DNA of 64,000 bases from contig JAHHIM010000003.1 of NCBI GenBank assembly GCA_019358915.1, positions 32,001-96,000 on the forward strand. Reading direction: 5' to 3'. Both the position numbers and the translations under genes were made by a program. Positions 5,890-53,867 of the stretch are shown piece after piece; the first letter of the stretch is position 1; each line of letters begins with the position of its first letter. This DNA is from Trichormus sp. ATA11-4-KO1 (GTDB lineage: Bacteria; Cyanobacteriota; Cyanobacteriia; Cyanobacteriales; Nostocaceae). The notes beneath the pieces are model-generated. The model made no database searches and was not told the DNA's origin. It saw only the letters and a program-made list of their open reading frames with translations.

Positions 5890-7344
5890 ATGACCGACGT
5901 ACTGGCATTAGGCGCACAAAAGCAGCAAGAAAAGGTTCATTCACCACTATTTGTAGGAAACTTTGACAGCTTTTGGGAGCAAGAAATCAGGCCTTTATTC
6001 ACAAATGAGTCTTTATCTTTCCAGGTAAAAATTCTGAATGGAAACTATATCAAGTACGTCAACTTGGATAATGGAGCTACAACCACTCCCTTTGCCAGCC
6101 TCAAGCAGCACGTGGACGAGAAGCTTGACACCTATGGCAGTGTGCATCGAGGTTCAGGGCAAAAGTCGATCATCACTACACGAGAATATGACGCTAGTCG
6201 GGATGTGATCCGGGATTTTGTGGGGTCGTCTTCACAGAACTATGTCATCTTTGCCAAGAATACAACAGAAGCAATTAATGGATCTGCCACACTATGGGCA
6301 AAAAGACCTGGCAAAATTTTAGTATCTGACATTGAACACTCCTCAAACTTGCTACCTTGGGTAACTAAAGACCAAGTTGTCCAATACAGAACCCAACCTG
6401 ACGGCAGTGTCAGTGTGGCCGCAATTGAAGCTATTTTCCAGGCGCATCAAAATCTCCCCCCAACTGAGCAAATCAAATTAATCACCATTACAGGTGCTTC
6501 AACAATTACAGGATATAGACCGCCTATTTACGAAATCGCCGCTTTAGCACATCGTTATGGTGCCAAGATGTTCGCTGACGTCTGTCAATTAATCCAGCAT
6601 GAGCGGGTGGATATGCGTGCAGATGATGACCCCTGTCATTTAGATTTTGTCGCTTTCTCTGGGCATAAAATGTATGCCCCTTATGGAACGGGGGTGTTGC
6701 TGGGACCTAAGGAGTTTTTTGATAGCTGCTACCCTTATCAAATTGGCGGAGGAAATCTACCTTATATCACCAGAAACCTAGAAATTAAGCGTTTTTATAC
6801 AGAACGGGCGCATGATCCTGGAACACCAAACGCAATGGGTGCGATCGCCATAGCAAAAGCAATTGAAATTATCGAAGCACTGGGGCGCGATCGCATTGCT
6901 CAATATGAACATTATTTAGTTGAATTTACATACACACGGCTTCAGCGTATTCCAGGTGTGCAAGTACATATCCCAGGAGATAACTTAGCCCATGTGATTC
7001 CCTTCGATATTAACGGGTTTGACGGCCGCTTAGTGGCTGAAATCCTAGCACAAGAATACGGAATTGGGGTGCGAGCCGGGGCTTTCTGCACTTACGAATA
7101 CATTCGCAAACTCAAAAATATTTCGGACGAGCAAGACTGCGAAATTGCTCAAGAAGTAGAAAGAGGAATTACTCGTAACATTCCCAGCATTATCCGGGCT
7201 AGCTTTGCTGTTTACAACACACTAGAAGACTGTGAGAGATTCCTGAAGGCAATTTCGGAAATTTCTCAAAATGGAGTTGATCACTATTTCTCTGACTACA
7301 CACAAGATGAAATGACTGGTGTCTGGACTGTGATAAATAAGTAG
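5890..7344 (+). CDS. Class V PLP enzyme, cysteine desulfurase-like (SufS/CsdA-related)
   Basis: YVNLDNGATT, EHSSNLLPW, FSGHKMYAPYGTG (PLP Lys), VRAGAFCT (Cys loop), RASFAVYNT. Confidence 0.85.
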   Translation: MTDVLALGAQKQQEKVHSPLFVGNFDSFWEQEIRPLFTNESLSFQVKILNGNYIKYVNLDNGATTTPFASLKQHVDEKLDTYGSVHRGSGQKSIITTREYDASRDVIRDFVGSSSQNYVIFAKNTTEAINGSATLWAKRPGKILVSDIEHSSNLLPWVTKDQVVQYRTQPDGSVSVAAIEAIFQAHQNLPPTEQIKLITITGASTITGYRPPIYEIAALAHRYGAKMFADVCQLIQHERVDMRADDDPCHLDFVAFSGHKMYAPYGTGVLLGPKEFFDSCYPYQIGGGNLPYITRNLEIKRFYTERAHDPGTPNAMGAIAIAKAIEIIEALGRDRIAQYEHYLVEFTYTRLQRIPGVQVHIPGDNLAHVIPFDINGFDGRLVAEILAQEYGIGVRAGAFCTYEYIRKLKNISDEQDCEIAQEVERGITRNIPSIIRASFAVYNTLEDCERFLKAISEISQNGVDHYFSDYTQDEMTGVWTVINK

Positions 7345-7357
7345 AGCAGATAAAACT

Positions 7358-7410
7358 CTTTGTGTCTTAGTGGTTTAAGATTTTTACCACCAAGGCACAA
7401 AGACACCAAG
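7358..7410. repeat. 9-mer-based palindromic dispersed repeat (CTTAGTGTC/GACACTAAG family)
   Basis: CTTTGTGTCTTAGTGGT...ACCACCAAGGCACAAAG; related copies near 9765, 34195, 46767, 63349. Confidence 0.7.
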
Positions 7411-7454
7411 TTTTTTCCAGTCAGCTAGGGGCATATTGAACAGGAGGTAATAGT

Positions 7455-8741
7455 TTGAGCGATGAAAACCTCTTTGGCCAGGAGGATTATTTACAGGCGC
7501 GAGTTGATGAGTACATCTGGCAACAAAGCACATCTGCGGGTATTTCTCGCCAGCGCTTTCTGCAAATCCTCGCGACTATGGCCGGGGCTGGGGCTATGGG
7601 GGGACTGGCTAGATCGGCACCTGCTCATGCTGAGACTGCTTCCAAAGCCAAGGGTAGTAAAATCATCAAACCATTGCTACCAGGCTACATCTCTCATAGT
7701 AAAGGCACACTAGAGATGAACTGGGAAGCAATGTATGGGCGTGGCTATTTAGTGCCAAACGATTGGTTCTATGTTCATAATCGCCATGCGCCTCCCACTT
7801 TTGATTTATCTACATGGCGTTTGCGAATTGAGGGAACTGGTGTTAATACCCCTTGCGAGTTTACATACGATGAAATCATCGCTATGCCCTCAATCTCGGT
7901 CACTAGTGCCATTGAGTGTGCTGCCAATGGTCGGCGTTTCTTTGAAGAAGCTTATAATAAACCTCTTTCTGGAACGCGGTGGAGGTTAGGCGCTATTGGT
8001 GTGGCTGAGTGGACTGGTGTACCACTTGGCTTATTGTTGGAGCGCGCTGGAGTGAAAGCCACAGCCAGAGATGTATTAGTTGAAGGGGCAGATTTAGACT
8101 CGCTGGACTCAAAAGGGACAAATCAGGCTAAATTCAGCAGTGTAGTTCCTATTGCCAAAGCCACAGCAGATCACTCTCTCCTCGTCTATGCAATGAATGG
8201 AGAAGCACTACCCCCAGATCATGGTCAGCCGTGTCGTGTAATATTTCCTGGTTGGTCAGGAAATGCCAACGTGAAATGGATTGAGCGCATTGAAGTTTCC
8301 GAAACCCCCATATATTCACAGTGGGTATTAGGCCAAATGGTGCTGACTGGCGCAGATTACCCAGCTAAGTCTCCGTATAGAGGTAAGTTAATTACTTACC
8401 AAAATGTCAAGAGTGCCTTTGAATTAGCTTGGCCAGCTACGCTTTCTGCGAGAAAATACCTGCTGCGTGGGCGTTCTTGGTCTGGAAAAGGAAAAATTGT
8501 CCGTGTGGAAGTCAGTTTGGATGGTGGCAGAACCTGGCAATTGGCAAGACTGAGAGAACCCAATTTTCCCTTTGCATGGGTGCGATGGGATATTGAATGG
8601 CATCCAGTTCCTGGAGAATATGCTCTCCAAGCTCGTGCTACTGACAATTTAGGTAACACACAACCGAATACGGTGCCGTGGAATGATTTTGGACTGCTTT
8701 ACGGAGGTGTTGTCAGTCATCCAGTAACAGTACAAGGTTAA
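7455..8741 (+). CDS. Sulfite-oxidase-family molybdopterin oxidoreductase with Tat-like signal
   Basis: GGAGG RBS + TTG; SRQRFL/hydrophobic/AHA signal; IECAANGR (Mo-ligand Cys), AEWTGVPL, YAMNGEALPPDHG, VEVSLDGGRTW, ARATD. Confidence 0.88.
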   Translation: MSDENLFGQEDYLQARVDEYIWQQSTSAGISRQRFLQILATMAGAGAMGGLARSAPAHAETASKAKGSKIIKPLLPGYISHSKGTLEMNWEAMYGRGYLVPNDWFYVHNRHAPPTFDLSTWRLRIEGTGVNTPCEFTYDEIIAMPSISVTSAIECAANGRRFFEEAYNKPLSGTRWRLGAIGVAEWTGVPLGLLLERAGVKATARDVLVEGADLDSLDSKGTNQAKFSSVVPIAKATADHSLLVYAMNGEALPPDHGQPCRVIFPGWSGNANVKWIERIEVSETPIYSQWVLGQMVLTGADYPAKSPYRGKLITYQNVKSAFELAWPATLSARKYLLRGRSWSGKGKIVRVEVSLDGGRTWQLARLREPNFPFAWVRWDIEWHPVPGEYALQARATDNLGNTQPNTVPWNDFGLLYGGVVSHPVTVQG

Positions 8742-8776
8742 CCAGCCTAAATATCAAGTTTAACTAAGCCTTTTTT

Positions 8777-9613
8777 ATGAATGATTTCGTTTGGTTGATT
8801 TTAATAGCTGGTGGGCTAATATCTGGCGTTATAGCGGGACTTTTAGGTATAGGTGGCGGCATTATCACAATTCCGCTTTTAGTTACCCTAGGTTATACAC
8901 CTGTGCAAGCGATCGCTACTAGTAGCCTGGCTATTGTGATTACTTCAATTTCTGGAAGTTTGCAGAATTTGTGGATGGGCTATTTTGATTTTAAGCGAGT
9001 GATTTATTTAGGAATTCCCGCTTTTTTAACTACTGGAGTCGGAGTCTATTTCGCCAACAAGATTCCCTCTTACATCATACTTTTTACATTTGGCATCATC
9101 TTACTGGCTAATGTCTATTTGATAGAGCTACGCAAGCAACTAATTTTAAAGCAAGCAGAGAATACAGCACCAGCATTTAATCCATTACTTTCTAAAATTG
9201 GTACTGGAGGAGCAGCCGGAATTTTAGCCGGCTTCTTTGGTTTGGGTGGCGGAACAATTATGGTTCCCCTACAAATGTTACTACTAGGAGAAGAAATTAA
9301 AGTAGCAATTCAGACTAGCTTAGGTGTGATTGTAATTACTGCTTTAGCTGCCTGTACAGGGCATACATTAGAGGGAAATATTTTGTTTGTTCAAGGTCTA
9401 GTTTTGGGATTTGGAGGTCTTTTAGGCGTTCAAATGAGTACTCGCACTTTGCCAAAATTACCCGATTCTGTTGTTAGTCTGGCACTGCGGATTTTTTTTG
9501 GATTACTATCAATTTATGTTTTTGGCGAAGCTTGGATAAATTATCAAGTCATAGCTGCAAAACCTTCAATAAATGAGAGTTTATCAGTTTTTTATTCCTT
9601 ATTTATAGGTTGA
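8777..9613 (+). CDS. TauE/SafE (TSUP) sulfite exporter family membrane protein
   Basis: Two GxxGxGGG repeats (AGLLGIGGG, AGFFGLGGG), AIATS / AIQTS motifs, highly hydrophobic. Confidence 0.9.
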   Translation: MNDFVWLILIAGGLISGVIAGLLGIGGGIITIPLLVTLGYTPVQAIATSSLAIVITSISGSLQNLWMGYFDFKRVIYLGIPAFLTTGVGVYFANKIPSYIILFTFGIILLANVYLIELRKQLILKQAENTAPAFNPLLSKIGTGGAAGILAGFFGLGGGTIMVPLQMLLLGEEIKVAIQTSLGVIVITALAACTGHTLEGNILFVQGLVLGFGGLLGVQMSTRTLPKLPDSVVSLALRIFFGLLSIYVFGEAWINYQVIAAKPSINESLSVFYSLFIG

Positions 9614-9717
9614 AATTTATCCGAATTTAAAAAATGATATTATAAATTGGCTTGTAGAGCCAAACCCGATTTTGTATCTATCGCTTGATTTTTGGAAATG
9701 GGGATAAAAAGTATAGG

Positions 9718-9948: not shown

Positions 9949-10521
9949 TTATTGTGGAGGTCTCACACAATTAGCTCCTCCAGGAGAATTTGCATCTGGA
10001 TAAATGGCTAAAGTGTGATATCCAGGTGTAACATCTTCGTATAGTATTCTAAAAGTATAGAGCTTAGTTCTACCTTGCCCTTCAGTAATTACTGTTAAAA
10101 GTGTATTGTCTGTTTTGGGCAATCCCGGAATTTTTAGTCTTTGAATTCGCCGGAGTTGAATAACATTCGCTGCTGAGTTTTTACAATCTCCTGAATTAAA
10201 GTTACGTTCTTGGCCGAACTGCATACACATCGGCCCATCAAAATCCATAGTTACCTGTGATGGGTCATTTAGCCAAACTTTTTTAATGGTTTCGCCAGAT
10301 GGAATAAAGCTTAAATTTGTTCCTTGCTGATAGGAAACTTCGAGAGTGGGTACTACTCCCCCCAAACCTTGTGCTTGGCAAGAAAACAGGGAACGAAGCA
10401 CAGCATTATTAGCGACAGCACGACCTGCTAACAATAATATTGCAGTAGAGAAAATCAAGGAAGCTAGGGGGAATAAATCTGAGTATTTTAAAGTTTTTCC
10501 TGTCAAGTTAATGTGTTTCAT
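9949..10521 (-). CDS. Exported T4SS-associated protein, VirB9-like by position
   Basis: Signal peptide, beta-rich (GTNLSF, GETIKKVWLNDPS, LLTVIT); last gene of the VirB4 operon. Confidence 0.5.
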   Translation of the reverse strand: MKHINLTGKTLKYSDLFPLASLIFSTAILLLAGRAVANNAVLRSLFSCQAQGLGGVVPTLEVSYQQGTNLSFIPSGETIKKVWLNDPSQVTMDFDGPMCMQFGQERNFNSGDCKNSAANVIQLRRIQRLKIPGLPKTDNTLLTVITEGQGRTKLYTFRILYEDVTPGYHTLAIYPDANSPGGANCVRPPQ

Positions 10522-10570
10522 GACTATACACAGGGGAGTGGGGAGTGGAGTAGTTCAATGTAATTACAAA

Positions 10571-12136
10571 TTACAACTGCATGGTTCTATTGACATAGAT
10601 TTCTACTTCTTTGCCAGCTGGTATGAACCAAACATTAGTTTGTTGCATCATTTGCGAGATTGCCTGTTGATTACGTTGTGAAATTTGGGGAACGATAGAG
10701 TTCAAACCACCTTCCACAATTCCCGCAGCTACGTTGCGTCGGGGGTTAGTTGTGGTGACTATAGTACCGGCAGCACCTTGGTTGACAACTTGGGTATCAG
10801 TACGATTAAATAGCTCTGCTGCTTTACCAATACCTCCCAAAATAAATAATCCTGCATCCATTCCCGCTATGGATGCACCTTGATTGGGAAATTTACTGGC
10901 TACTAAAGGTTTACCTTGGGGAGCGCGAACAATAATTGCACTTTTGGGTAAGCTCCTTTCTGTGAGTTGGCCGTTATCTTGCGAAACAACTTTGACTACA
11001 TCCAGATGTAGCAGTCCTTGTTCAGAAATAGAGCGAATTTCGGCTAATAATTCAGTATTAGCAGGTAAAGCAATTTCACCATCTACAGCTTTGAGTGGTT
11101 GTTGCAAACGCAAAACAAATACATTGGCATTTTCATCACTGTCATTATTCCTTGATCTCGTAGTTTCCCCAAATATGGCTGTTGCTAACACAGCTTTGGC
11201 GCTACTTCCTACTTTGATAGATTTTGAGTTTTGCGGTTGTGCTTGGCTAATTATGGGATCTTGCTGTGGTGGGGTTGGTTCAGGGTCGGAGTTTGTTACT
11301 TGGGCTTGTGCATTAGTATTGTTTACAGGTTCAGACCTAGCGGCATTCCTACTAGATTGACCAGTAGCAGACACCTGACCGTAGCTACCTAATTTTGCTA
11401 ACCTTGTCCATTCCTCAAGGGGATCGGGTGTAGATGGTTTAATGTCTGGGTGAGGAACTGGTAGAGGTGCTGGTGCAAGTGGCGGCGCAATAGCAATTGG
11501 TGGCACAGGAAGAGGTGGAGAAGAAGGTTTTTCAATGATGCGCTCAACTGTCACTACTCGGGGTGTAGAAGCCGCAGTTTGTACAGGTGTTGATGTTCTG
11601 GTGTTTGTCTGTGGAGTTTCAATCCTTGAAGCTGCTCTATTTCTGAGATTTTGTTGGGCTGCTGTCACCGCCTCTGCTTGTTCAGCCAAGGCTAATTTTG
11701 TTTTTAAAGTCTCTATTTCTTGTTCTAAATTTTGCCGGGAAGATTCACTTGTTGATGGCAATGCAGCTGTTGAGGAAACAAGATTATTCTCTCTTGGCTT
11801 TTGATTGCTGGTATTCATTACCTGCGATAAAAACACACCAGCCACCATAACTACAGCCAAGGTGGCGCTGCCTACCAAGGCTAACTTAGCAAAGGGATTA
11901 GATGATAGGGGTTGCTCAGTTTGCACTTCTTGTGGCTGAGATGGCGACGGCGGCAAACTAGCTGAGTCTTCTGCTAATGCTTCAACGTTGACCTTTGGGG
12001 CTTCTTCTTCAAAGCCAACCAATTTGGCCATTCTGGATTCCCAATCTAAAGACCCTACTTCTGGTTGGTAGTTGTCGGTGGTTGGTTTGATTAAACGTTG
12101 TGGAGAAAGTTCTGAGTGAATTGAATAAGAAGTCAT
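10571..12136 (-). CDS. TrbI/VirB10-family protein
   Basis: Single TM, coiled coil, long Pro-rich linker, beta C-terminal domain (IKVGSSAKAVL, IALPANTELL, WFIPAGKEVEIYVN). Confidence 0.75.
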   Translation of the reverse strand: MTSYSIHSELSPQRLIKPTTDNYQPEVGSLDWESRMAKLVGFEEEAPKVNVEALAEDSASLPPSPSQPQEVQTEQPLSSNPFAKLALVGSATLAVVMVAGVFLSQVMNTSNQKPRENNLVSSTAALPSTSESSRQNLEQEIETLKTKLALAEQAEAVTAAQQNLRNRAASRIETPQTNTRTSTPVQTAASTPRVVTVERIIEKPSSPPLPVPPIAIAPPLAPAPLPVPHPDIKPSTPDPLEEWTRLAKLGSYGQVSATGQSSRNAARSEPVNNTNAQAQVTNSDPEPTPPQQDPIISQAQPQNSKSIKVGSSAKAVLATAIFGETTRSRNNDSDENANVFVLRLQQPLKAVDGEIALPANTELLAEIRSISEQGLLHLDVVKVVSQDNGQLTERSLPKSAIIVRAPQGKPLVASKFPNQGASIAGMDAGLFILGGIGKAAELFNRTDTQVVNQGAAGTIVTTTNPRRNVAAGIVEGGLNSIVPQISQRNQQAISQMMQQTNVWFIPAGKEVEIYVNRTMQL

Positions 12137-12168
12137 AATGTATTACTTGGTTTTAATTTGCTGAGTTG

Positions 12169-12855
12169 CTAATTGCCAGAACAGGTATTATCTTTGATGT
12201 CACATATCTCGTAAATTTCTAGCCTAGCTTCGCCTAGGCGGTATGCTGCTAAATGCCAAGGTAGTGGTTTGGTTGGTAGTGAAGTTGCTGGTTCATCTAT
12301 TGCTCGCACTAAGATTTGTTTGTTAAATGGGATTGATGTTCCCAAATTATTAGAACCGGTAAAATTTAATTGATTTGCCAGCATTTCTACTTTCCAATTA
12401 CCATCAGCTATTTGGATTGGTTGAGAAATTTTTTGTACTACTAATACATATTCAGTTCCTTGATTAATATTGGCAAATTGCTTGGTTGAATTTAAATTAG
12501 TAATTTCTGACTGAAATCTTGGTTTCAAATCATTAGCTAAGAGTTGCGAACTAATTTCCCATACTGTTATTGGTGGCTGTTGTTGTGACCAGGTAAGCAT
12601 TAAGGTCATAGTTTCACCTACAAAGCGGCGAATTGTGTCTGGATGTCGCTCATAACTTTGTTTGGGGTCTGCGGTAATGGCACGACCATCGACAAGTTGC
12701 ACTAAAGTTTTAGGTGTTAACTGCTGCTTTAAATCTTGCAACATTGAACTGTGAAATAAAAGTAATAGCAAGCTAAATAAATGTAAACTGAATGTTCCTA
12801 CAGCTAAAAGTGGCAAGATGCTACTTTTTTTATTTTCTGGTTTTAGTAATTGCAT
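12169..12855 (-). CDS. Bitopic membrane protein, VirB8-like
   Basis: N-terminal TM, LVQLVDG, TIRRFVGETMTLMLTW; paralogous to 12889-13710. Confidence 0.55.
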   Translation of the reverse strand: MQLLKPENKKSSILPLLAVGTFSLHLFSLLLLLFHSSMLQDLKQQLTPKTLVQLVDGRAITADPKQSYERHPDTIRRFVGETMTLMLTWSQQQPPITVWEISSQLLANDLKPRFQSEITNLNSTKQFANINQGTEYVLVVQKISQPIQIADGNWKVEMLANQLNFTGSNNLGTSIPFNKQILVRAIDEPATSLPTKPLPWHLAAYRLGEARLEIYEICDIKDNTCSGN

Positions 12856-12888
12856 AAATACTAGAATAATATTAAATTCATAGGATAT

Positions 12889-13710
12889 TTATCTGATAAA
12901 GCTGCTAGAGGTTTGTCCGTTACATGGGTTAGATTTATCTTCACTAAGATTGCTGTAGTCATCTAATAAACATAAATTACGAATTTCGTAAATTTCCAAT
13001 TTATCAGTACGATTACTATAAATTGCTTTTTGGATATCAGTGCTAGTATCAGCTAAAGGGTAGGGATAATAGTCTACTGCACGTACCAGTAAATCTTTAT
13101 TAAATGGTGTTACTGTTCTTCTATCATCATCTTGTCTTTTTTGAATTAGGTCGGCTACCATCCCCACTCGCCACTTACCAGGAGCAATTTCTTCTGGAGG
13201 ATAAACCCGCTTCACAATTAACTCTGCTGACATAGCTTGGCTGGGATTGCTAGAGAAAACTTCTGGTGGTGTCATTTGCGCGATCGCACTTAAGAAACCT
13301 TTACGAAAATCTTCTGAAAAAGCAAAACTAGCTACCCAACTAGTGGTAGTAACTTTTTGGCTACCACCTTCTGGCGTTCTCACCATAATTCCTGGATCTG
13401 GTTGCGGTTTTGCGGCTGCTTCAATGGTTTGTGGTGGGAGGGTTCCAGACCAATTGAACATTGATGTCATGGTTTTACTGATGAATTGGCGAATTGCTTC
13501 TGGGTCTCTGGCTAAATCATCAGTAGCAGCTAGGGATTGACCATCGATCATTTGCACAAAGTTAGGCGGTTTTCTCAGACTGAGTTGGCGAATATTTAAC
13601 CCTTGCAAAATGAATACAAATAACACCAATAAATGCAAACTAAAGGTGGCGATCGCAAAGGTTGTGAGAATACTACCAGTTTGTTGTCTTTTTTTGAGTA
13701 AATTTACCAT
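12889..13710 (-). CDS. Bitopic membrane protein, VirB8-like
   Basis: N-terminal TM, FVQMIDG, AIRQFISKTMTSMFNW, PFNKDLLVRAVD, LEIYEI shared with the downstream paralog. Confidence 0.55.
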   Translation of the reverse strand: MVNLLKKRQQTGSILTTFAIATFSLHLLVLFVFILQGLNIRQLSLRKPPNFVQMIDGQSLAATDDLARDPEAIRQFISKTMTSMFNWSGTLPPQTIEAAAKPQPDPGIMVRTPEGGSQKVTTTSWVASFAFSEDFRKGFLSAIAQMTPPEVFSSNPSQAMSAELIVKRVYPPEEIAPGKWRVGMVADLIQKRQDDDRRTVTPFNKDLLVRAVDYYPYPLADTSTDIQKAIYSNRTDKLEIYEIRNLCLLDDYSNLSEDKSNPCNGQTSSSFIR

Positions 13711-13745
13711 TCTCTTATTTCCAACTCATCGATCATGCTGAAAAC

Positions 13746-14795
13746 TTATATCCTATCTTTCACCAAAGAAGCTGTACTATTAATAGCACTAAAAACTGCA
13801 AATCCTCCTGCACCAGCTACAACTAAAGATAAAAGTGGTGCTAAAATTCCTAGAAAAATTATGAACCACATTAAATCGGGATTTGCATTAGGATTTTCGG
13901 CAGGGCCATTAATAATGACTGCGGCAGTTAACGCGGCAATAATATTAAATGAAATCTTGGCTATTCCCGCCGAGAAGAATCCTGTCAGCCAGGCAAAAAT
14001 TGGTTTTCCAGCTACAGGTAACAAAGATGCACCCACAGCTAGAGGACCTAAAGCAGCTATCAGCAGCATAGTGGCTTCGATTAAATTCTGAAAAGCATAT
14101 TGCAAAGAAATTAAAAAGTTTTTGATACTGGTTTGAACTGTATTACCCAATAAAGCATTAAAGGTTGTTTCTGATAAATTTCCTGTACCGAATTTCAGTG
14201 AAATCACCTGATTTTCTAATCTTTGAATCCAAACTCTATTACCGTATAAATTTCTATATTCTCGCCAGAGAGCATCAATTTGGTCGCTGGCTCTAGCAAA
14301 GCATTGGGTTTGTTGTTCACCAGTTAGTGATTGACAAGGACGCAGTAAAGAACCAGCTACTTCTTCAGCTAAACTCATATTCAGTGCTTGCTGATAAGTT
14401 TGATTAGCATCAGCTGTAGTGACTACTTGCTGATTAACGGTATTAATAAAATTTCTAACTCCCAATGTCAAACTAGAAAGGATGCTGCCATCTCCCGCAT
14501 TACTTAACAGGACAACTACGATAAAAGGCCAAATCAAACCCGTTATGGGACGGGAATATTCGCTGTATATAACATCTTTGAGCCATTGCATCATAAAAAA
14601 TAGGAGAGTTCCTACAGCAAAAAATACACCCAGATTTGTCAGCGCTCCATATAAGTTATTACTGGTATTGTTTTGTAATAAATCTAGCCATTGATTATCC
14701 CAACTTTCAGCGATGCTTCTAGCAGTTGCCGCACCACTATCAAAAGTTTCATTAATCCCAATTTCCGGAAAGATTTGCAGAATATGCAGATGCAT
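13746..14795 (-). CDS. Polytopic membrane protein, VirB6/TrbL-like
   Basis: Several TMs flanking a central soluble loop; LLIAALGPLAVGASLLP; position in VirB4 operon. Confidence 0.6.
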   Translation of the reverse strand: MHLHILQIFPEIGINETFDSGAATARSIAESWDNQWLDLLQNNTSNNLYGALTNLGVFFAVGTLLFFMMQWLKDVIYSEYSRPITGLIWPFIVVVLLSNAGDGSILSSLTLGVRNFINTVNQQVVTTADANQTYQQALNMSLAEEVAGSLLRPCQSLTGEQQTQCFARASDQIDALWREYRNLYGNRVWIQRLENQVISLKFGTGNLSETTFNALLGNTVQTSIKNFLISLQYAFQNLIEATMLLIAALGPLAVGASLLPVAGKPIFAWLTGFFSAGIAKISFNIIAALTAAVIINGPAENPNANPDLMWFIIFLGILAPLLSLVVAGAGGFAVFSAINSTASLVKDRI

Positions 14796-14829
14796 TTTGG
14801 TTCACAGTTTTGCTGATAATAATTATTAA

Positions 14830-15597
14830 TTAATTCTCTTCTCTCCCAAATAAATCTGTTTGAGAAGTCGTGCGAATGAGTCTGGCGGCCTCTGTTGATG
14901 CATCTACTCGACGAGTGCGATTCATTGCTTCCATCTGTTGGGAAATGTTCGCTAAATTTAAGTTAGAGTATTGCAAAGATTGATGTGTTTTGATTGATTG
15001 AGAAAGTGCTTCACTGATGATTTTTGTTTGTTCTTGTTGGATTTTAATAGATTGTAACTGTAAGTTGCCTTTCTCGCCTTCTAATGCAGCTAATGGATTT
15101 GATTGACCTAGGTTTGTAGCAACACTAGCAAGTCTCTGAAAAATATTATCGGATTCTTGAGAAAGTTCTTCAATGTTATCAATGATAGTCTGAGTATTTT
15201 GCAACTGTGATTTTAAGCGGATTTGTCCATCTCTACCCATAACACTTTCTATGGAACTACGGGTAATTAGCCGACCGATTTCGTTACTAACTGAATTAGC
15301 TTGGATAACTGGGTTATTTTCAAACTTATCTGTTACTGGGTTAAACAAAATATCTTGGCGGAAACTTTTTACAGCCTCAATTGGGTTGGGTATATTCGAT
15401 TCTCCTGTGGCATTATTGAGAGCATTTTGACTTCTAATTTCCAGAGGTCTTAAGGTGTCGCTCAAATTATTTCTGAGATAATTTTGTATATCTACAGAAT
15501 AAGATTGAAAATCAGTCCAAACTTTGCCTAATTGTGCCATTGCTGGTAGGACTAATAAGAAGGAAAAAGCCAATGTGAAACAAGTAGTTTTCTGCAT
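14830..15597 (-). CDS. Secreted helical protein, VirB5/TrbJ-like by position
   Basis: Signal peptide (LPAMA-Q), Q/N-rich helical sequence, between VirB4-like and VirB6-like genes. Confidence 0.45.
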   Translation of the reverse strand: MQKTTCFTLAFSFLLVLPAMAQLGKVWTDFQSYSVDIQNYLRNNLSDTLRPLEIRSQNALNNATGESNIPNPIEAVKSFRQDILFNPVTDKFENNPVIQANSVSNEIGRLITRSSIESVMGRDGQIRLKSQLQNTQTIIDNIEELSQESDNIFQRLASVATNLGQSNPLAALEGEKGNLQLQSIKIQQEQTKIISEALSQSIKTHQSLQYSNLNLANISQQMEAMNRTRRVDASTEAARLIRTTSQTDLFGREEN

Positions 15598-15642
15598 ATG
15601 TGTAAATCTGAAAGAACGTGGACGAAATTTGAAATTACTCGA

Positions 15643-18390
15643 TTAACTACCACGCAGCGAAGCGATTAACTGCCGCGCAAATACAGAAATTGCTTCATAT
15701 TTATCGCTGTAATGCAGCATTACTTGTTGGCGTGCAGTTTGTTCATGAGGATTGTTAGCAACTACTGCTAATTGTGCGAAACCTGGATAGTAGCGGCAGA
15801 AGGTATAAATACCGTTATCATCTAGTAACCATTGGCTATAAACACCTTCTTTGCGAGGAAAAAAGCTTTCTGTGGCATTACGAGAAATAATATCGCCGGG
15901 ATATTTTAAGATGTTGACAAAACTATCTACTGCTACTGGCTGAATCCGACCGATTAATCTTGTGGATAAATTTTGCAAAATTTTCGATGCGGCTTTGGAT
16001 TTGGCGATGGTATCAGGGTCTTGTGCTGATAAGATGACTCTAATTCCCGCTTTGGCACCGTTGGCGCAAACTCTGCCGACTAAATCGGATATTTGGTCAA
16101 ATTCAAATAAAATTGGGGCTTCGTCAATAAAGAAGATAGAAGCTGGACTACTTAATGCACGTCGCAAAGCGGCGGAATAAGCACTTAAAGATAAGACGGC
16201 TGCATCTTCGTTATCTGAGAGGTTTCGCAGTGCAAAAACCAAAAGTTGAGCATCGGTGGGAAAGCTAGAGGGTGCAGAAATGGACTGTCCCACACGACTA
16301 GATAGCCAAAACCGCAAGCGCAGTTGAATTTGACTGAGTGCATCATCAACTCTGCCACTAACAGATTCTAATTGCAGATGTTCTGGTGAGCAGAAGTAGA
16401 GAAAGTCTCTTAAGGTAGGGGTTTTCTGCCATGCTTCACTGCCAAATCCGCCGGCTATAGCTTGTTTATATCGTTCTTTGATCCCGTTATCTGCAAAGAA
16501 AGCGCCTAAAGCTAAGTTGATCAGGGAACGCACAGTTTGAGCCAGCAGCTGACTTTCAGTAGATGACCCTAAAACCATTGTCATTAAGGCTGATTCTAAA
16601 AAGCCTGTATAATCGAGCAGGCGATCGCGCTGTTCTTCTGGAGAAAGCGATCGCAAATCTGGCTGTTCAAATAAATTATTGGATTGTTTGGAAATATCAA
16701 AATACGCTCCATTCCTTCCCATGAACTCTGTATAGTCGGTAAAGGTGGATGAGCCATCGGGTTTGGGAAAGTCTAAAGCGACTACGGGAATTCCATGAGC
16801 TAAGGCTTGAGTTAAAATTCCTGACACCAAAACCGATTTACCAGCACGCGTTGTCGCAAACAGCGCTAAATTTTTGTGTTGGTTAAACAAATCTAGATGT
16901 ATTGGTGTTCCTCCTTCTTCAGCAATCAACTCAAAGCCGTGGCTATCTCCGGCTTTAGTTAACACTAAAGGCATTAATCCAGGAACTTCGCTGGTTAAAT
17001 ATAACTGGCGGCGATTAAAGGGTTTTACTAACAAACCTTCCCAAACAATTGGTAGAGATTGTAACCAAATTTTCCAGGTATACTCTACTTCCCTAATTAC
17101 CTGTGCTGGACGTTGAAAACAGTTTTCAATGTATCTTGTGGCTTCATCTAATTTTTCTACGGTGGGACGATGCACAAAAATAACTATGCTTGTATATATC
17201 GGTACTGCCCCTTCATATAATTGTTCTTGCGCTGCTACTGATTTCTTTAACTTTAATTGAGCGCTGACATCAATTGTTTTACTTTTTTCTTGCGCCATGA
17301 GTGCTGTCATATTTGACTGCTTCAGCACTCGTTGCAAAGTAGTTTTTACTAATGCAGGATTAGCAGCAGTTAACTCACAAAAAATTTCCGTATCTACTAC
17401 TGTTTCTCTAGCTAGCAGTTCCCACAAATAACGCATTTGAGCAAATTTATTTTGCCAACCTCCGGGTTTTTCCAGAAATGTTAGTGCCCCAATGTAGCGA
17501 TTTTTCACATTCACCCAACGGCGATCAGCACAGGGTACGCCAGACTCCATCAGTAACGTGGTACTGTGGATATTTTCTATGAGCAATTTGGTACTAGCTA
17601 AATCTGAATTAACTTGTTCATGCAGTCCATTTTCATCTAAATGAAGTAGTTGGGGAATTTCTATAGGTTGTGTATCATTAAATTGCTTCCAGGCATGTTC
17701 CCATAATTCCTCAGCAGTTAAAGGTTTGACATCTAAACCCATTTTGTTAGATAAAAGCTGTTCCCAGCGTGAAAAACCTTGTTGGTAAGCTTTGATAATC
17801 AGAGTTTCGATGCGCTGGTTCTGCACATCTGCTAATTCACCTTTAAATTGCAACCACCATACTTCAGCTTTGGCTAAAAGTTTCTCGATCCAATCATCTG
17901 TATAGTTAGTATTTGGTTCAATAGTGTAAGTGACATAAATTCTGAGGAATTTCGGCTTGCGAATACCAGCATGAGTCAGTTCTTGAATTCTGGCTCGTTC
18001 TGCTGTTAATAAATATTTTATGTCCCGTGATGGTGTCTGTCTTACCAAATCTGCAAGTTCTTTTTGGCGTTGTTTATCTGAACTAAAAGACCCCATATGT
18101 AAGGTCATTTTTTCACCATCAGGAATGTCTTTTAAACCTGATTCAATATTATTAAATATCGTATCTATTTGTTCAGACCTCAAGGTAGTATGGATACCTC
18201 GACATTCAAAACCAAAAACAAAGCAAAACCGATCTTTTTGGGTTCCTTTGTTCAGAATATATGCACCAATATCGCGTCCATCTAGAGAAACGCGTAGCAT
18301 TGTTGCCAAATTTAAAGCATCTTCAAATGGTGTTAATCTACTTTCTTGACCTGCGAGGCCGATGCTTTGTTTTCCGATTTTTTGCTTCAT
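15643..18390 (-). CDS. virB4: VirB4-family T4SS ATPase
   Basis: 915 aa; C-terminal P-loop ATTRAGKS, Walker B IFFIDEAP, GAKAGIRVILSAQD; operon context with VirB10-like gene. Confidence 0.8.
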   Translation of the reverse strand: MKQKIGKQSIGLAGQESRLTPFEDALNLATMLRVSLDGRDIGAYILNKGTQKDRFCFVFGFECRGIHTTLRSEQIDTIFNNIESGLKDIPDGEKMTLHMGSFSSDKQRQKELADLVRQTPSRDIKYLLTAERARIQELTHAGIRKPKFLRIYVTYTIEPNTNYTDDWIEKLLAKAEVWWLQFKGELADVQNQRIETLIIKAYQQGFSRWEQLLSNKMGLDVKPLTAEELWEHAWKQFNDTQPIEIPQLLHLDENGLHEQVNSDLASTKLLIENIHSTTLLMESGVPCADRRWVNVKNRYIGALTFLEKPGGWQNKFAQMRYLWELLARETVVDTEIFCELTAANPALVKTTLQRVLKQSNMTALMAQEKSKTIDVSAQLKLKKSVAAQEQLYEGAVPIYTSIVIFVHRPTVEKLDEATRYIENCFQRPAQVIREVEYTWKIWLQSLPIVWEGLLVKPFNRRQLYLTSEVPGLMPLVLTKAGDSHGFELIAEEGGTPIHLDLFNQHKNLALFATTRAGKSVLVSGILTQALAHGIPVVALDFPKPDGSSTFTDYTEFMGRNGAYFDISKQSNNLFEQPDLRSLSPEEQRDRLLDYTGFLESALMTMVLGSSTESQLLAQTVRSLINLALGAFFADNGIKERYKQAIAGGFGSEAWQKTPTLRDFLYFCSPEHLQLESVSGRVDDALSQIQLRLRFWLSSRVGQSISAPSSFPTDAQLLVFALRNLSDNEDAAVLSLSAYSAALRRALSSPASIFFIDEAPILFEFDQISDLVGRVCANGAKAGIRVILSAQDPDTIAKSKAASKILQNLSTRLIGRIQPVAVDSFVNILKYPGDIISRNATESFFPRKEGVYSQWLLDDNGIYTFCRYYPGFAQLAVVANNPHEQTARQQVMLHYSDKYEAISVFARQLIASLRGS

Positions 18391-18715
18391 GGTTAACTTC
18401 TAGCACGCTTTGATAACGAGCAAAGCCTCTTGTCCACTTGGGAACTCCAACAAATTTGCTCAAAAAACGCCAACTTCTACCACCAGTTAATATCCACCAA
18501 GTTGCTATTCCCCAACCGGCGATTAATACTGTCCACAGCCATCTTTGAAAATCGTCTGGAAAAATTCCCCCAAAAATTCCGTTGATCATAAAGTAGGAGG
18601 CTAAAACAATCACAAGCCAAGGAAATATCTGATCAGCAGGAATCGGCCCTAATGATGGTTGTGATCCGAGGATTTGATTGACTGGGCGAAATTCTGGCTC
18701 TCGTTCTTGAGACAT
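18338..18715 (-). CDS. Small 2-TM membrane protein, VirB3-like
   Basis: Two TMs, overlaps the virB4 start; FRPVNQILGSQPSLGPIPADQIFPW. Confidence 0.55.
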   Translation of the reverse strand: MSQEREPEFRPVNQILGSQPSLGPIPADQIFPWLVIVLASYFMINGIFGGIFPDDFQRWLWTVLIAGWGIATWWILTGGRSWRFLSKFVGVPKWTRGFARYQSVLEVNHEAKNRKTKHRPRRSRK

Positions 18716-18758
18716 AAGCAGTTTCTTAACTTTGTTTCATCTTAATAGTAGAGATGAA

Positions 18759-19373
18759 TTAGTTACTACTATCACCAATTACAAAGCCTGTAAGGACATC
18801 AGCAACAGTGACAGCGACAACCACTAACAAGGGAACTCTAGCGATACTTTGCCAATCTTCATCTTTTCGTACTGCGTTAATCACACCAATTAGAGAAACA
18901 GCTATATAGAGTAAGTAAATCGCCCGCAGAACGTTGAATATTAAACTGACTGCTGTTTGGGTATTGCTGTTGCTTGATGTACCTTGTGTCAAAGTATTTC
19001 TAAAAAAATCTTCAGCTTTCCCAAAAAATTGTGCATGTGCAGGGGAGGCAAAGTAGTCTAGCCAAAATAAACAGAAGACGACAGATACTACCAAGATTTG
19101 TAATAGTATAAACCATCGCTTCGACAAATGCACCTGCTGACCAATTTGCTGGATGAGTATTGCTGTTAAACTACCAACCAGCAAACAAAAAAGCAGTATG
19201 GGACTTTTTAAACTAATAACGCTTAAAAATACAGCACAAGCAATCAAAAAGGGTAGCGATTCAACCACGCCAAGACGCCATGATGCTAAAGTCTGTCTCA
19301 ATATGTCAGATGTTCTCGCCGCACTAGTAGTTAAACCTTTGCCGAGTCTTCTTGCACTGGAATTTTTAGACAT
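18759..19373 (-). CDS. Pilin/VirB2-like membrane protein
   Basis: Hydrophobic leader, PAHA-QFF cleavage-like site, then two hydrophobic helices separated by RKDEDW; first gene of operon. Confidence 0.5.
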   Translation of the reverse strand: MSKNSSARRLGKGLTTSAARTSDILRQTLASWRLGVVESLPFLIACAVFLSVISLKSPILLFCLLVGSLTAILIQQIGQQVHLSKRWFILLQILVVSVVFCLFWLDYFASPAHAQFFGKAEDFFRNTLTQGTSSNSNTQTAVSLIFNVLRAIYLLYIAVSLIGVINAVRKDEDWQSIARVPLLVVVAVTVADVLTGFVIGDSSN

Positions 19374-20060
19374 TTGCCAATTTCCCTATTATCTATAACA
19401 AATATCAGTCTGATTCATCCTTAAAAGTTTTACCATTTAACATGAGCTAAGATTCATTCTTAAGAAAGAAATTTATGTCGCCAAAATATAATATATGTTC
19501 ATCCTGCTTCAACCTATTAAGGATGTATTAATCAATTCTTAACATTTAGTTAAATACATAATTTCATCACATGCCACAGTCATTCCTGAGCTTTATCTAT
19601 AAGTTATTACACTGGCAAGCAGAGAGTTTACTTTCTATATAGTTGAGTCAATTGTGCGTTAGGCTTACCGCGATCGCATCATTTATCTTGTGTACGCTTA
19701 CAGTCTCAATTATTAACTGTGCTTAAACATCTTGTATGTATCCGTACTGCACTGCGAAGCATAACTGTTGAGCGAAGAATGGAGAAAATGTCTGTGAAAT
19801 TTGTTTGAGAATGAAAATTTGATAGTTGAGATTTATACGTAAAAATTAGTTAATTTTTATACTTTAATTGTTATTTGCGTGATACTATCCAGAATCAGGT
19901 TACTAGATAGGTAGCAAAATGTCTAGTGTAGAAAACCACAATTATCATTATCCGCAGTGAAGGTTCATAGAAATTAGGGATTAGCTGCCCAATTTTGGCA
20001 CTGATGAGATTTAGCAGCTTATTTGCTATGTATCTTAGAAGAAGTGGTAGACCGTCACAC

Positions 20061-20275: not shown

Positions 20276-20440
20276 AGACATAAATACAGGAATTATGTCT
20301 AAAAATTCTCTCTTAAAGACTTGATTTTTTAAGGTTAGTCATAAAAAATAAAGATAACCTCTAACAAGTTGTAGTCCATCTTGTTAAGAACCTAACCTTA
20401 TCCAATTTTACAAGTCCGCCCCTGCGGACTTTATTTATTT
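20276..20440 (+). ncRNA. Candidate sRNA locus, copy 1 (palindrome + promoter-like region + two hairpins)
   Basis: AGACATAA-N9-TTATGTCT; TTGATT-N15-TAAAAAAT; TAACAAG/CTTGTTA hairpin; AAGTCCGC-CCCT-GCGGACTT + T tract; no ORF. Confidence 0.5.
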
Positions 20441-20485
20441 GTAGTCAAACTTTATAGTTTACCGTATGGAGATCAATCCAAATAT

Positions 20486-20638
20486 GACATAAGGAATTAT
20501 GTCTAAATATTTCATTTCATAGGCTTGATTTTTGCAATTTAATCGTAAAAAATAAAGATGCCATCTGACATAATTGTTGCCAATACAAGTAACAATTAAC
20601 CCTTATAGTGTGTGTCCGCTTTAGCGGACTTTATTTTT
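20486..20638 (+). ncRNA. Candidate sRNA locus, copy 2
   Basis: GACATAA-N4-TTATGTC; TTGATT-N15-TAAAAAAT; TAATTGTTGC/GTAACAATTA hairpin; GTCCGC-TTTA-GCGGAC + T tract. Confidence 0.5.
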
Positions 20639-20646
20639 GCCATAAT

Positions 20647-22011
20647 TTAGCCAATTTGGCTGGGAAATTCGGCGCGAAACTGATTGACAACACGATCTAG
20701 TCCCACGGAATGAGCGGCTTTGAACAATAAGCGATCGCCTGCTTGGACAAATGTTTTTAATCTCGCCAGCAAATCGGCATGAGTAGCAAAGCACTCCGAT
20801 GGAATCCCCTCGGCACTCTTGGCGATCGCTTCGGCATCTTGTCCATCCACTAAAACTAGCAAACCGTCTAATTGCAACTTTTGCACTGTTTCGCCCACTC
20901 TTTGGTGTAATTGCGGCGATCGCTCTCCCAATTCTTTCATTGCACCCAACACAGCAATTTTGCGCTTTCCGGGTGTATCTGCCAATAACTGCAAGGCAGC
21001 TACCATAGCTTCTGGTGCAGCATTATAAGTCTCATCTAAGATTAATACATCATTGGGCAAGGTGAACCGTTGCGATCGCCCCGTGGGCATATTCACCATG
21101 AAACCACTTTGTAAGTTTGACCAATCAATGCCCAAAACCTTAGCCACAGCTAAAGCCGCCAAGAAATTAGTGGCATTATGACGACCAGGCAGAGGTAAAG
21201 GTAGCTGCATTCCCTCAACTTCTATAGTTTCGTGATTGATCAGTGACCCTTGGATGTCGCCACCCGCAAGACCATAACTTAAAACTTTCCCCGACCAAAC
21301 TTGTTGCGCCGTAGCCATTAATAGGGGATTGTCATAATTGAGAATCGCCACACTATCTTGGGGCATTTCGGCTAATAACTCACATTTAGCCTGAGCGATC
21401 GCCGCTTCTGATCCCAGTAACTCAATATGCGCCGTTCCCACATTGGTAATTACCCCTATGGTCGGACGTGCTATTTGTGTGAGTTCGGCAATTTGTCCCT
21501 GACCCCGCATCGCCATTTCAATCACGGCGTAGTCATGTTCTGCATCCAGTTCTAACAAAGTTTTGGGAACACCGATTTCATTATTGAAATTCCCAAAAGT
21601 CTTGTGAACTTGTCCCTTGGTTGCCAAAACTGCGGCGATCAGTTCCTTAGTTGTAGTTTTACCTACAGAACCCGTGATCCCAATCACAGGAATATGCCAG
21701 CGATCGCGCCACCATCTGCCAATTTTTTGATATGCCTCTAAGGTGTTTCTCACCCGTAATCCAGGTAACCCTGGATTTTCGTAAGCATCATCGACAATTG
21801 CGGCAATAGCACCAGAGGCGATCGCTTTGGGGACAAATTCGTGTCCATCAAAATTTTCCCCTCGGAAAGCTAAGAAAACTTCACCCGGTTTGAGTATCCG
21901 AGTGTCTGTTTGGATAGCACTACCTACTTGTGCTAAAGCCGCCTCAGATAAATTTACAGGCTGTGCCGCAAGAACTTCTATTAATTGGGTGAGGGTGGCA
22001 GAACAAGACAT
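20647..22011 (-). CDS. murF: UDP-N-acetylmuramoyl-tripeptide--D-alanyl-D-alanine ligase
   Basis: GENFDGHEF, IGITGSVGKTTTKE, NFNNEIGVP, DETYNAAP, VLGAMKELG. Confidence 0.95.
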   Translation of the reverse strand: MSCSATLTQLIEVLAAQPVNLSEAALAQVGSAIQTDTRILKPGEVFLAFRGENFDGHEFVPKAIASGAIAAIVDDAYENPGLPGLRVRNTLEAYQKIGRWWRDRWHIPVIGITGSVGKTTTKELIAAVLATKGQVHKTFGNFNNEIGVPKTLLELDAEHDYAVIEMAMRGQGQIAELTQIARPTIGVITNVGTAHIELLGSEAAIAQAKCELLAEMPQDSVAILNYDNPLLMATAQQVWSGKVLSYGLAGGDIQGSLINHETIEVEGMQLPLPLPGRHNATNFLAALAVAKVLGIDWSNLQSGFMVNMPTGRSQRFTLPNDVLILDETYNAAPEAMVAALQLLADTPGKRKIAVLGAMKELGERSPQLHQRVGETVQKLQLDGLLVLVDGQDAEAIAKSAEGIPSECFATHADLLARLKTFVQAGDRLLFKAAHSVGLDRVVNQFRAEFPSQIG

Positions 22012-22297
22012 AATAGTCGAACTAATTTTTCAGATAAATTAATTAAATTCGCGAAATACAAAGTATACAAATTTTCTGGCGCTTACTCCCACAATTCTTG
22101 TAGAAAAAATATCCAGTAATTCAGCTATTAAGTTGTTTAAGTTTATACTCTTCTTTGAACTTTGTCGTCACTTAAAAACTATACCGTTTAGTTAGTAGTT
22201 GGTTACAGTTTTAGTAACACGACCGTTAGCTTTGTGATATCTGTGCATAAAATGATTGCGGTTAAAGACGGACTGTTCAGTTGAGGTTAATTTCATA

Positions 22298-23026
22298 ATG
22301 AAGGGAAAATATTTGACCCTGATTGGTACAGCTTTAACATTGGCATTAACTACCAATGTTGCTGTTGCTGAATCAAAAGACCCATCGACTAGTTCAGCAA
22401 AAGAAATCGAGATGTCACCAGAAGGGCTAAAAATTCTGTGTGAGGAATCCCCGCTCAATTCCCGTTGTCCAGGTGGTACACCAATTTCACCCAGCACCGA
22501 CTCTGGCAACCCGACCACACCCGGCACTATTACCACACCAGAGTCGGAAATTCCCGCCAACCCGACTGCACCCGGCAGCATCACCACACCAGAGTCGGAA
22601 ATTCCCGCCAACCCGACTGCACCCGGCAGCATCACCACACCAGAGTCGGAGATGCCAGATAACCCGACTGTACCCGGCAGCATCACCACACCAGAGTCGG
22701 AAATTCCCGCCAACCCAACCGCACCCGGCAGCATCACCACACCAGAGTCGGAAATTCCCGCCAACCCAACCGCACCCGGCAGCATCACCACACCAGAGTC
22801 GGAGATGCCAGATAACCCAACCGTACCCGGCAGCATCACCCCACCAGAGTCGGAAATTCCCGCCAACCCAACCGCACCCGGCAGCATCACCCCACCAGAG
22901 TCGGAAATTCCCGCCAACCCAACCGCACCCGGCAGCATCACCCCACCAGAGTCGGAAATTCCCGCCAACCAGACTCAACCAGTTCCAGATTCTGGTTTGC
23001 CACAAAATCCCACTTTGGGTAATTAA
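22298..23026 (+). CDS. Secreted protein with CxxxPLNSRC motif and Pro/Thr/Glu-rich 17-aa repeats
   Basis: GAGG RBS, signal peptide (AVA-E), LCEESPLNSRC, 9 x NPTAPGSITTPESEIPA-type units. Confidence 0.8.
   Translation: MKGKYLTLIGTALTLALTTNVAVAESKDPSTSSAKEIEMSPEGLKILCEESPLNSRCPGGTPISPSTDSGNPTTPGTITTPESEIPANPTAPGSITTPESEIPANPTAPGSITTPESEMPDNPTVPGSITTPESEIPANPTAPGSITTPESEIPANPTAPGSITTPESEMPDNPTVPGSITPPESEIPANPTAPGSITPPESEIPANPTAPGSITPPESEIPANQTQPVPDSGLPQNPTLGN
22508..22966 (+). repeat. Coding tandem repeat, 9 x 51 bp
   Basis: Unit AACCCGACTGCACCCGGCAGCATCACCACACCAGAGTCGGAAATTCCCGCC, contiguous with no spacers. Confidence 0.95.
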
Positions 23027-53651: not shown

Positions 53652-53867
53652 GTGATAACTGTTAACTATTATTTAGTTTTCCCCAGCTAGTTTTTTGGGG
53701 TTCCGCTTCTCTCCACTCAACCTATGCTCGGATTGCGATCGCCTATATTAATTATGGTTCTTTCGGTAGTTTTATGGTGAATATTAAAAGCTTGGTTGGA
53801 AGCACTCTATCAGTGAGATAATCAATCACAAATTTTTGATTATCATGCCGATTTTGGCAAATTTCTC

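Follow-up and report, generated by a model that had tools for sequence, protein, structure and literature searches.

A chromosomal type IV secretion operon without a coupling protein in heterocyst-forming cyanobacteria, with evidence suggesting a link to phosphate starvation

We analysed a stretch of 64,000 nucleotides from Trichormus sp. ATA11-4-KO1 (assembly GCA_019358915.1, contig JAHHIM010000003.1, positions 32,001 to 96,000), called the window below. On its minus strand, at 9949-19373, it carries nine intact, co-oriented open reading frames (ORFs) of 204, 125, 915, 255, 349, 273, 228, 521 and 190 amino acids in reading order. With VirB4, a VirB8 fold and VirB10 identified, the nine genes form a type IV secretion system (T4SS) apparatus of mating-pair-formation class C (MPF_C). 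The operon has lost the parts needed for conjugation, is kept by purifying selection and probably serves the phosphate-starvation response, as expression and gene context indicate. With a probability of about 0.5, we read it as a conjugation machine turned into an organelle for nutrient scavenging, a phosphate-controlled MPF_C system without a coupling protein that either sends out phosphatases or imports DNA to obtain phosphorus, its VirB9-like component (B9) being dispensable in some lineages.

The VirB8b ortholog in Nostoc PCC 7120 is BAB72423, and because gene lengths and neighbours fit, the operon of that strain is all0471-all0463; its locus tags are given in brackets, and all nine genes of the window lie on the minus strand. 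The VirB4 ATPase (15643..18390, all0469) has intact Walker A and B motifs, matches TIGR00929 (E 2e-11) and TIGR02746 (E 4e-15), both below cut-off, and is 53% identical to VirB4 of pCC7120alpha. VirB10/TrbI (10571..12136, all0464) matches PF03743 above cut-off (E 2e-10) and has a proline-rich linker and a retained helical hairpin. For VirB8a (12889..13710, all0466) a sequence search of solved structures gave nothing significant. A structural search with its AlphaFold model (pLDDT 64) returned VirB8/DotI/TraM/CagV-type proteins as the top 11 of 48,161 chains (Z 9.3-10.7, root-mean-square deviation about 3, 119-135 residues aligned). VirB8b (12169..12855, all0465), the second copy by which the chromosomal type is recognised, is 30% identical to VirB8a. 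A complex of the two is predicted with a score of 0.82 against 0.01 for the best control (pLDDT at least 81, runs agreeing in at least 86% of contacts), at a mark that 116 of 157 solved complexes attain, as do 2 of 215 mismatches. Since VirB8 homodimers have already been solved, this pass may reflect likeness to them.

The remaining products are assigned less directly. The VirB2-like pilin precursor (18759..19373, all0471) shows in alignments a membrane leader, an A-x-A/Q cleavage-like site and a mature part, about 90 amino acids long, that is conserved; an aligned sequence search found no PDB match. Its nearest named Atlas families, DUF4134, DUF2976 and DUF3852 (0.82-0.83), which we take to be conjugative pilin-like families, are leads only. 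The VirB5/TrbJ-like exported helical protein (14830..15597, all0468) has a signal-peptide-like N-terminus, and its nearest Atlas cluster, 'putative TrbJ' (0.94), is likewise a lead only. The VirB3-, VirB6- and VirB9-like labels derive from homology and position relative to the MPF_C model locus on pCC7120alpha. The VirB3-like membrane protein (18338..18715, all0470), which has no family match of its own, is 41% identical to the product of the gene preceding virB4 there. The polytopic VirB6-like protein (13746..14795, all0467), without a PDB sequence match, is 33% identical to its positional counterpart. The VirB9-like exported protein (9949..10521, all0463) is 43% identical to the pCC7120alpha protein and, by alignment, lacks the C-terminal 70-amino-acid helical part of the conjugative copies; its model has a pLDDT of 41, and 103 homologs gave no Pfam or PDB link. 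Among 30 mobile-type homologs no relevant Pfam family was found. In the literature, MPF_C is credited with homologs of VirB3, B6, B8, B9 and B10 and, by profiles, with none of VirB2 (PMC4027160). An initial annotation of the window had held that only the VirB4 and VirB10 assignments rest on sequence features and that the others are mostly positional. This was accurate for those two proteins; VirB8 is now supported by its fold.

The chromosomal VirB4 proteins form one clade with support 100/100, nested among conjugative MPF_C systems, in a careful tree that used 27 of 66 rows. Together with the class-specific genes clustered around virB4, this bears out the resemblance to MPF_C proposed in the initial annotation. 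The window operon and the conjugative MPF_C T4SS of pCC7120alpha (PMC4027160) have homologous genes in the same order with 26-53% identity, and neither locus contains VirB11. The window type differs in being chromosomal and largely co-diverging with its host, in lacking VirD4, relaxase and the alr7212-like gene, in having two VirB8 genes, and in a VirB9-like gene that is truncated or lost. VirD4, relaxase and the alr7212-like gene were found in 0 of 141 loci of the chromosomal type, a set in which some genomes are counted twice and some loci end at contig ends; no integrative conjugative element (ICE) is therefore apparent around them. Mobile-type loci have VirD4 in 14 of 19 cases and two VirB8 genes in 0 of 19. 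Searched genome-wide, VirD4 gave no match in 34 of 43 operon carriers, including 9 of 10 single-contig assemblies; these carriers were selected for low VirB4 copy number, and single-contig assemblies may omit plasmids.

VirB4 matches fall into two sets, one present as a single copy per genome at 74-100% and one of mobile copies at 65% or less. The best 150 matches come from 149 genomes and show 78-100% identity and no internal stop. With the VirB8b profile, 157 of 201 Nostocaceae genomes are positive, nearly all with a single copy, and 44 of 201 are negative. Outside the family, VirB4 at 70% or more was found in 1 of 282 genomes (two candidates scored per genome), a sample that probably includes many small marine genomes. 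Among 133 PLSDB records the sole VirB4 match above 61% lies in Gloeothece PCC 7822, on a linear replicon of 880 kb that is typed as non-mobilizable and carries the double-B8 set in rearranged order. Most losses fall within one clade of smaller genomes. Four of five operon-lacking genomes contain no VirB4 remnant, and the fifth holds only a distant mobile-type copy. Of 10 genomes tested, 8 lack a cognate copy of the VirB9-like gene. Two observations on unusual copies belong here. Outside Nostocales, Gloeothece verrucosa PCC 7822 (L032) and genome G385 (L195) carry rearranged chromosomal-type operons from which the B9-like gene is missing, the G385 operon being split into two convergent halves. 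Four further genomes (G194, G074, G042 and G105; L223-L229) carry two paralogous chromosomal-type operons without mobility genes.

All nine genes are under purifying selection, with median dN/dS of 0.065-0.29 over 11-15 pairs. Constraint is strongest in VirB4 (0.065), the mature pilin (0.07) and B6 (0.10), and B4, B6 and B8 remain constrained in lineages without B9. In most of 15 pairs the operon dS is near that of rpoB/C. The tree of the operon and that of RpoB-C1-C2 (40 genomes) have 13 of 37 splits in common (random 0.24) and 11 of the 23 strong ones. As the operon conflicts with 8 strong splits and the control, RpoB against RpoC2, gave no strong conflict, we conclude that inheritance is mostly vertical with some transfer of the whole operon. 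Vertical descent, which the initial annotation had put forward for checking with trees, is thus upheld for the larger part and contradicted for the rest. The clearest case of transfer is genome G080: the host lies inside the clade that lost the operon, its copy groups with the clade of the window at 100/100, and the operon dS is about 0.8 compared with 1.5-2.5 for rpo genes.

These data leave next to no room for a decaying plasmid or ICE remnant. Such an origin would agree with the descent from conjugative systems, with flanking genes that vary between genera and with one fragmented copy (L234, in a low-quality assembly); it is refuted by purifying selection on nine genes, by intact frames in 149 genomes, and by transcription and protein detection. 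The distribution (157 of 201 genomes) is not patchy, and selection is not relaxed. The domesticated, non-conjugative machine proposed in the initial annotation has accordingly held up. Very probably, as the computations support, the ancestor of heterocyst-forming cyanobacteria captured a conjugative MPF_C system once; the captured system would then have lost VirD4, its relaxase and the surface protein of alr7212 type, gained a second VirB8 by duplication and become a host operon, with the VirB9-like gene shortened or lost relative to conjugative relatives.

A host-kept mating channel, which would borrow VirD4 and relaxase from resident plasmids or use an unknown coupling factor and move DNA between or along filaments, appears very unlikely. 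The genome of the window does hold possible donors. It carries three further MPF_C clusters, on the small contigs C43, C66 and C57; among them VirB4 identities of 60, 53 and 39% occur. Contig C43 has a full conjugative set with VirD4 and a MobV-like relaxase; VirD4 otherwise occurs only as a broken piece on C38. Full-length MobV-like relaxase matches lie on other contigs and none on C3, the contig of the window, and extra relaxases are found on C45 and C61. The operon has also moved at times, as in G080, in the Gloeothece PCC 7822 and G385 copies and in the genomes with two paralogs. On the other side, selection persists although 34 of 43 carriers show no VirD4 match, and the alr7212-like gene, present in most conjugative loci, is gone. 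The description of the operon as stand-alone therefore holds for the locus and not for the genome, where the search for coupling and mobilization genes that had been recommended finds both on C43 and neither on C3.

Several lines of evidence connect the operon with phosphate. Genes for PhoX, PhoA, PhoD and PstS-like proteins recur upstream of it when flanking genes are clustered. In 16 of 57 loci, one of the two closest genes upstream encodes such a phosphatase or a PstS-like protein (14 of 57 without the haloperoxidase/acid-phosphatase-like family, which was assigned from motifs), compared with 0 of 19 mobile loci and a background of 21 among the 4151 genes of the window genome (0.5%). The N-termini of these neighbours, read by eye, are twin-arginine-like or Sec-like. 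Of the operon-bearing genomes 26 of 28 have PhoX, compared with 9 of 26 that lack the operon (kin are not independent). PhoX also follows the operon inside two genera: in g77 both carriers have it and the three non-carriers do not, and in g80 the one carrier has it and the one non-carrier does not. As a separate observation, a 609-amino-acid protein with a twin-arginine-like start and no Pfam or NCBIfam match is encoded upstream of the operon in three genomes (L028:1911-3740); its motifs are presumably haloperoxidase/acid-phosphatase-like.

Induction of the operon by phosphate shortage was predicted before the RNA-seq data of Nodularia CCY9414 were looked up. In the two comparisons without phosphate, NSP5570 (VirB10) changed by log2 +0.95 (not significant) and +1.35 (significant), NSP5600 (B6) by +1.92 and +1.48 and NSP5610 (B5) by +1.88 and +1.90, the last four values all significant; the three genes lie within predicted operon 379 (PMC9846622). 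Six other rows from the same tables, including the murF ortholog, were not significant, and in the phosphate-free comparisons no more than 112 and 344 of the 4752 genes rose (PMC9846622).

Upstream of the first gene, at 19517..19553 on the minus strand (143-180 bases before it), lies a conserved element of four TTAA units with an 11-bp period, which is a probable regulator binding site. Of 2035 upstream regions in the window genome, 1 has the perfect four-unit form; a perfect three-unit form precedes 62 of the 72 named orthologous loci, 15 of the 41 loci known by handle and none of the 20 mobile-type loci. Its period matches that of the SphR Pho box (PMC1906773), and its TTAA cores agree with the three tandem units expected of such a box. 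PhoX- and PhoD-like genes of the window genome score 20 against the published Pho-box consensus; the Nodularia authors report finding no such box before phosphorus-induced genes (PMC9846622). A high Pho-consensus score was also seen upstream of a single 10,376-amino-acid ORF at C41:1666-32796, which we record as an observation apart.

Expression in other strains bears on the biological context. In PCC 7120 the operon is a single transcription unit of 12,134 nt with a 93-nt leader (PMC10287535), and at least three of its proteins, All0464, All0466 and All0469, were detected by gradient proteomics (PMC11797042). One hour into hormogonium induction, the N. punctiforme genes Npun_F4255-F4263, assigned as the operon by synteny, had risen 1.5-3.6-fold, and they did so in sigJ, sigC and sigF mutants as well (PMC6495340). 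Control by the hormogonium sigma factors was rejected because the rise persists in these mutants, and the hormogonium context suggested in the initial annotation is weakly supported. SigJ-, LexA- and FurC-like motifs, in their usual patterns, are not conserved upstream of the operon; one paper predicts a FurC box before all0465.

A role in heterocysts or septa, with the machine acting in envelope or cell-junction building during differentiation, is improbable. The near confinement of the operon to Nostocaceae (the 1 of 282 genomes above) would suit it, as would the loss of B9, which fits a function without outer-membrane passage. In addition, all0463 stands on a list of genes specific to heterocyst-formers, with function unknown and 8-11-fold up after nitrogen removal (PMC4365693). 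This change corresponds to 1 versus 8-11 reads, and other genes of the operon changed little on nitrogen step-down, all0465 and all0471 barely, with one library per time point (PMC3141674). The operon is missing from the 44 Nostocaceae genomes counted above, and all0463 is given as absent from heterocyst-forming N. azollae (PMC4365693). Upstream of the operon, neither NtcA-like nor DIF1-like motifs are conserved (26 and 1 of 114). The heterocyst context named in the initial annotation thus keeps partial, weak support from the nitrogen response, and the evidence points to phosphate limitation rather than to a hormogonium or nitrogen context.

What the machine would do under phosphate limitation is constrained by the missing VirD4. 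Cytoplasmic substrates are unlikely for a T4SS without VirD4 (PMC4027160), which leaves periplasmic export, import, or a pilus as end product. Some T4SSs without a coupling protein secrete from the periplasm, and the supposed cyanobacterial type II secretion system (T2SS) looks like a type IV pilus (Abby et al., bioRxiv 10.1101/031039). Because the neighbours bear export signals, periplasmic secretion without a coupling protein is known and cyanobacteria lack a clear T2SS, we rank phosphatase export first, followed by uptake of DNA or organic phosphorus and by an adhesive pilus. In the proposed mechanism, VirB4 together with B3, B6 and a VirB8a/VirB8b heterodimer would build a short VirB2/B5 pilus. 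This pilus may work as a piston through a VirB10(-B9) channel and drive phosphatases, delivered to the periplasm by the twin-arginine (Tat) or Sec pathway, onto the cell surface or into the medium. The step from periplasm to outside would resemble that of Bordetella Ptl and need no coupling protein. As a specific model, a Ptl-like exporter of periplasmic phosphatases is a tentative proposal.

The import alternative, on the pattern of Helicobacter ComB, is unlikely. Phosphorus-starved cells would draw extracellular DNA or polymers of organic phosphorus into the periplasm, where the neighbouring phosphatases would free phosphate, transformation being a possible side effect. It draws on the same phosphate evidence (Nodularia induction, phosphatase neighbours, PhoX co-occurrence). 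Periplasmic phosphatases suit the role of downstream enzymes, and the set B2, B3, B4, B6, B8, B9 and B10 without VirD4, VirB11 and VirB1 resembles ComB in its usual composition. Both systems are domesticated; ComB belongs to another class, and the window operon has a B5-like gene and a duplicated B8. DNA uptake in cyanobacteria normally proceeds via type IV pili, which counts against import. No nuclease or competence gene was found among the 54 of 77 representatives of recurrent flanking families that were scanned (singletons left out), and losing B9 poses the same difficulty for import that it does for export. ComB itself is named as a DNA-import T4SS (PMC4027160).

About equally doubtful is a pilus for adhesion or contact, in which VirB2/B5 would attach filaments to surfaces, particles or partner cells under nutrient shortage and nothing would be transported. 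Bartonella Trw offers an analogue, a pilus-type T4SS without a coupling protein. The pilus-assembly core is under the strongest constraint, also in lineages without B9; induction by phosphorus limitation, nitrogen limitation and transfer to new medium fits a general starvation response; and most losses lie in one clade of smaller genomes. This explanation leaves unexplained the repeated adjacency to several phosphatase families and the PhoX pattern within genera. Planktonic Nodularia, Anabaenopsis and Umezakia retain the operon, and the pilin is single and conserved rather than diversified.

The phosphate-linked transport that we favour has to be weighed against a number of observations. The loss of B9 is explained by neither transport model, as the normal outer-membrane core should not form without it, and in one B9-less clade the VirB10 C-terminal domain is more relaxed (0.44-0.54 versus 0.09-0.33). 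VirB11 is absent from the operon, while Ptl has one. The 8 of 23 strong RNA-polymerase splits in conflict with the operon tree mean that inheritance was not purely vertical. The phosphatase families were chosen after the neighbours had been inspected, 11 of the 16 phosphatase-flanked loci are among 16 B9-less loci, many of them kin, and the window operon itself has no phosphatase neighbour. Three genomes have the operon without a PhoX match (G021, G053 and G385), and nine have PhoX without the operon. In Nodularia, 3 of 9 operon genes were read, NSP5600 and NSP5610 being assigned by their order between VirB10 and murF. Induction was 2-4-fold compared with 16-200-fold for PstS and phosphatases, and day 14 versus day 7 of replete culture, when the medium was phosphate-depleted, showed no rise of the operon (log2 0.15-0.27; PMC9846622). 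In a simple consensus count the TTAA element scores 18 of 24 against the published Pho-box consensus, a rank of about 496 of 2830. Finally, nitrogen removal in PCC 7120 raised all0469 and all0468 about 6-fold, from few reads (PMC3141674).

Comparison with known systems places these points in context. Bordetella Ptl, an exporter of periplasmic substrate, shares the absence of a coupling protein, and here the genes beside the operon often code for candidate substrates that carry export signals. Ptl, as commonly described, is MPF_T with VirB11, whereas the window operon is MPF_C without it. The lack of VirB11 makes it less likely that the system is a Ptl and does not affect whether it works like one, the MPF_C model locus being without VirB11 too. 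Pseudomonas Hxc, a phosphate-regulated T2SS for the alkaline phosphatase LapA encoded beside it, is a functional analogue as a starvation-induced export machine next to a phosphatase, built from unrelated machinery (T2SS versus T4SS). The rvh T4SS of Rickettsiales, which has kept VirD4 and delivers effectors into eukaryotic cells, is likewise fixed in its host and has two VirB8 paralogs, of independent origin. The system is MPF_C by descent, does not qualify as a conjugative element, and may work like Ptl or ComB as a member of neither. Only MPF_T and MPF_I are listed as containing known protein-secreting systems (bioRxiv 10.1101/031039).

The boundaries of the locus agree with the initial annotation, which had described nine packed genes in this order between tauE and murF and a gap of about 1.27 kb; we count 1273 non-coding bases upstream. 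On that side lies the host gene murF (20647..22011, minus strand), outside the system, which adjoins the operon throughout the Nodularia-like clade. On the other side is a convergent TauE gene (PF01925), and between it and the operon a terminator-like hairpin (9647..9666, minus strand) is suggested by a pattern match only. Among 51 window ORFs scanned with Pfam, none matched a family of integrases, relaxases, coupling proteins or VirB11, as had been stated. Nor does a tRNA or attachment (att) repeat flank the operon: the single tRNA of the window is 31 kb away, and the repeats common to both flanks are too short and too diverged, with a likeness of about 81% at best, to be att-like. The operon does contain the four HIP1 sites previously reported, or 0.42 per kb. 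Their use as an argument for domestication fails, as this density is no higher than on the plasmid-like contigs C43 (0.47) and C57 (0.41) and about half that of large contigs (about 0.8-1.0 per kb). Contig C3 belongs to a genome of 5.97 Mb in 73 contigs; a sister genome of the same genus has a VirB4 98% identical, and the closest named relatives are Cyanocohniella, Nodularia and Anabaena-labelled strains.

Some further features of the surroundings were noted. In several distant genera gyrA, mostly with lnt, lies convergent downstream of the operon (L018, L019, L021, L039, L111, L113, L186, L194 and L236), possibly the ancestral operon site. In the window, co-oriented genes for an aminotransferase class V, a molybdopterin oxidoreductase and TauE at 5890-9613 may form a sulfur-handling cluster, which adjoins the operon in this genus only. 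The non-coding region after murF (20288-20636) contains 2-3 degenerate copies of 79-nt and 23-nt repeats spaced by about 200 nt. A 256-amino-acid ORF at 22256-23026 opens with a signal-peptide-like start, is otherwise built largely from proline/threonine-rich tandem repeats of 16 residues and matches no Pfam family. At 52788-54734 a DUF2887/DUF4351 tandem gene pair has identical N-terminal starts.

In a search that covered few subscription journals, no paper was found that treats all0471-all0463 as a T4SS or assigns it a function; mentions were limited to all0463 and all0465 in tables. Relaxase-less T4SSs in cyanobacteria receive one sentence without description in the cited part of PMC3158045, and the cited parts of PMC8600333 and PMC4390875 treat only plasmids or pili. 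New in this analysis is the suggested phosphate link of a chromosomal operon derived from MPF_C. It touches on how Nostocales externalise alkaline phosphatase without a classical T2SS and on the use of organic phosphorus by bloom- and mat-forming species. It also points to defined genes, still 'hypothetical' in databases, in two genetically tractable models, PCC 7120 (all0471-all0463) and N. punctiforme (Npun_F4255-F4263). The natural variants with a double VirB8 or without VirB9 are useful for structural work on T4SSs. If the proposed reading is true, it would be the first non-conjugative function in MPF_C, a class assumed to be for conjugation only, extending the exaptation of T4SSs, and, as far as we know, the first T4SS dedicated to acquiring nutrients.

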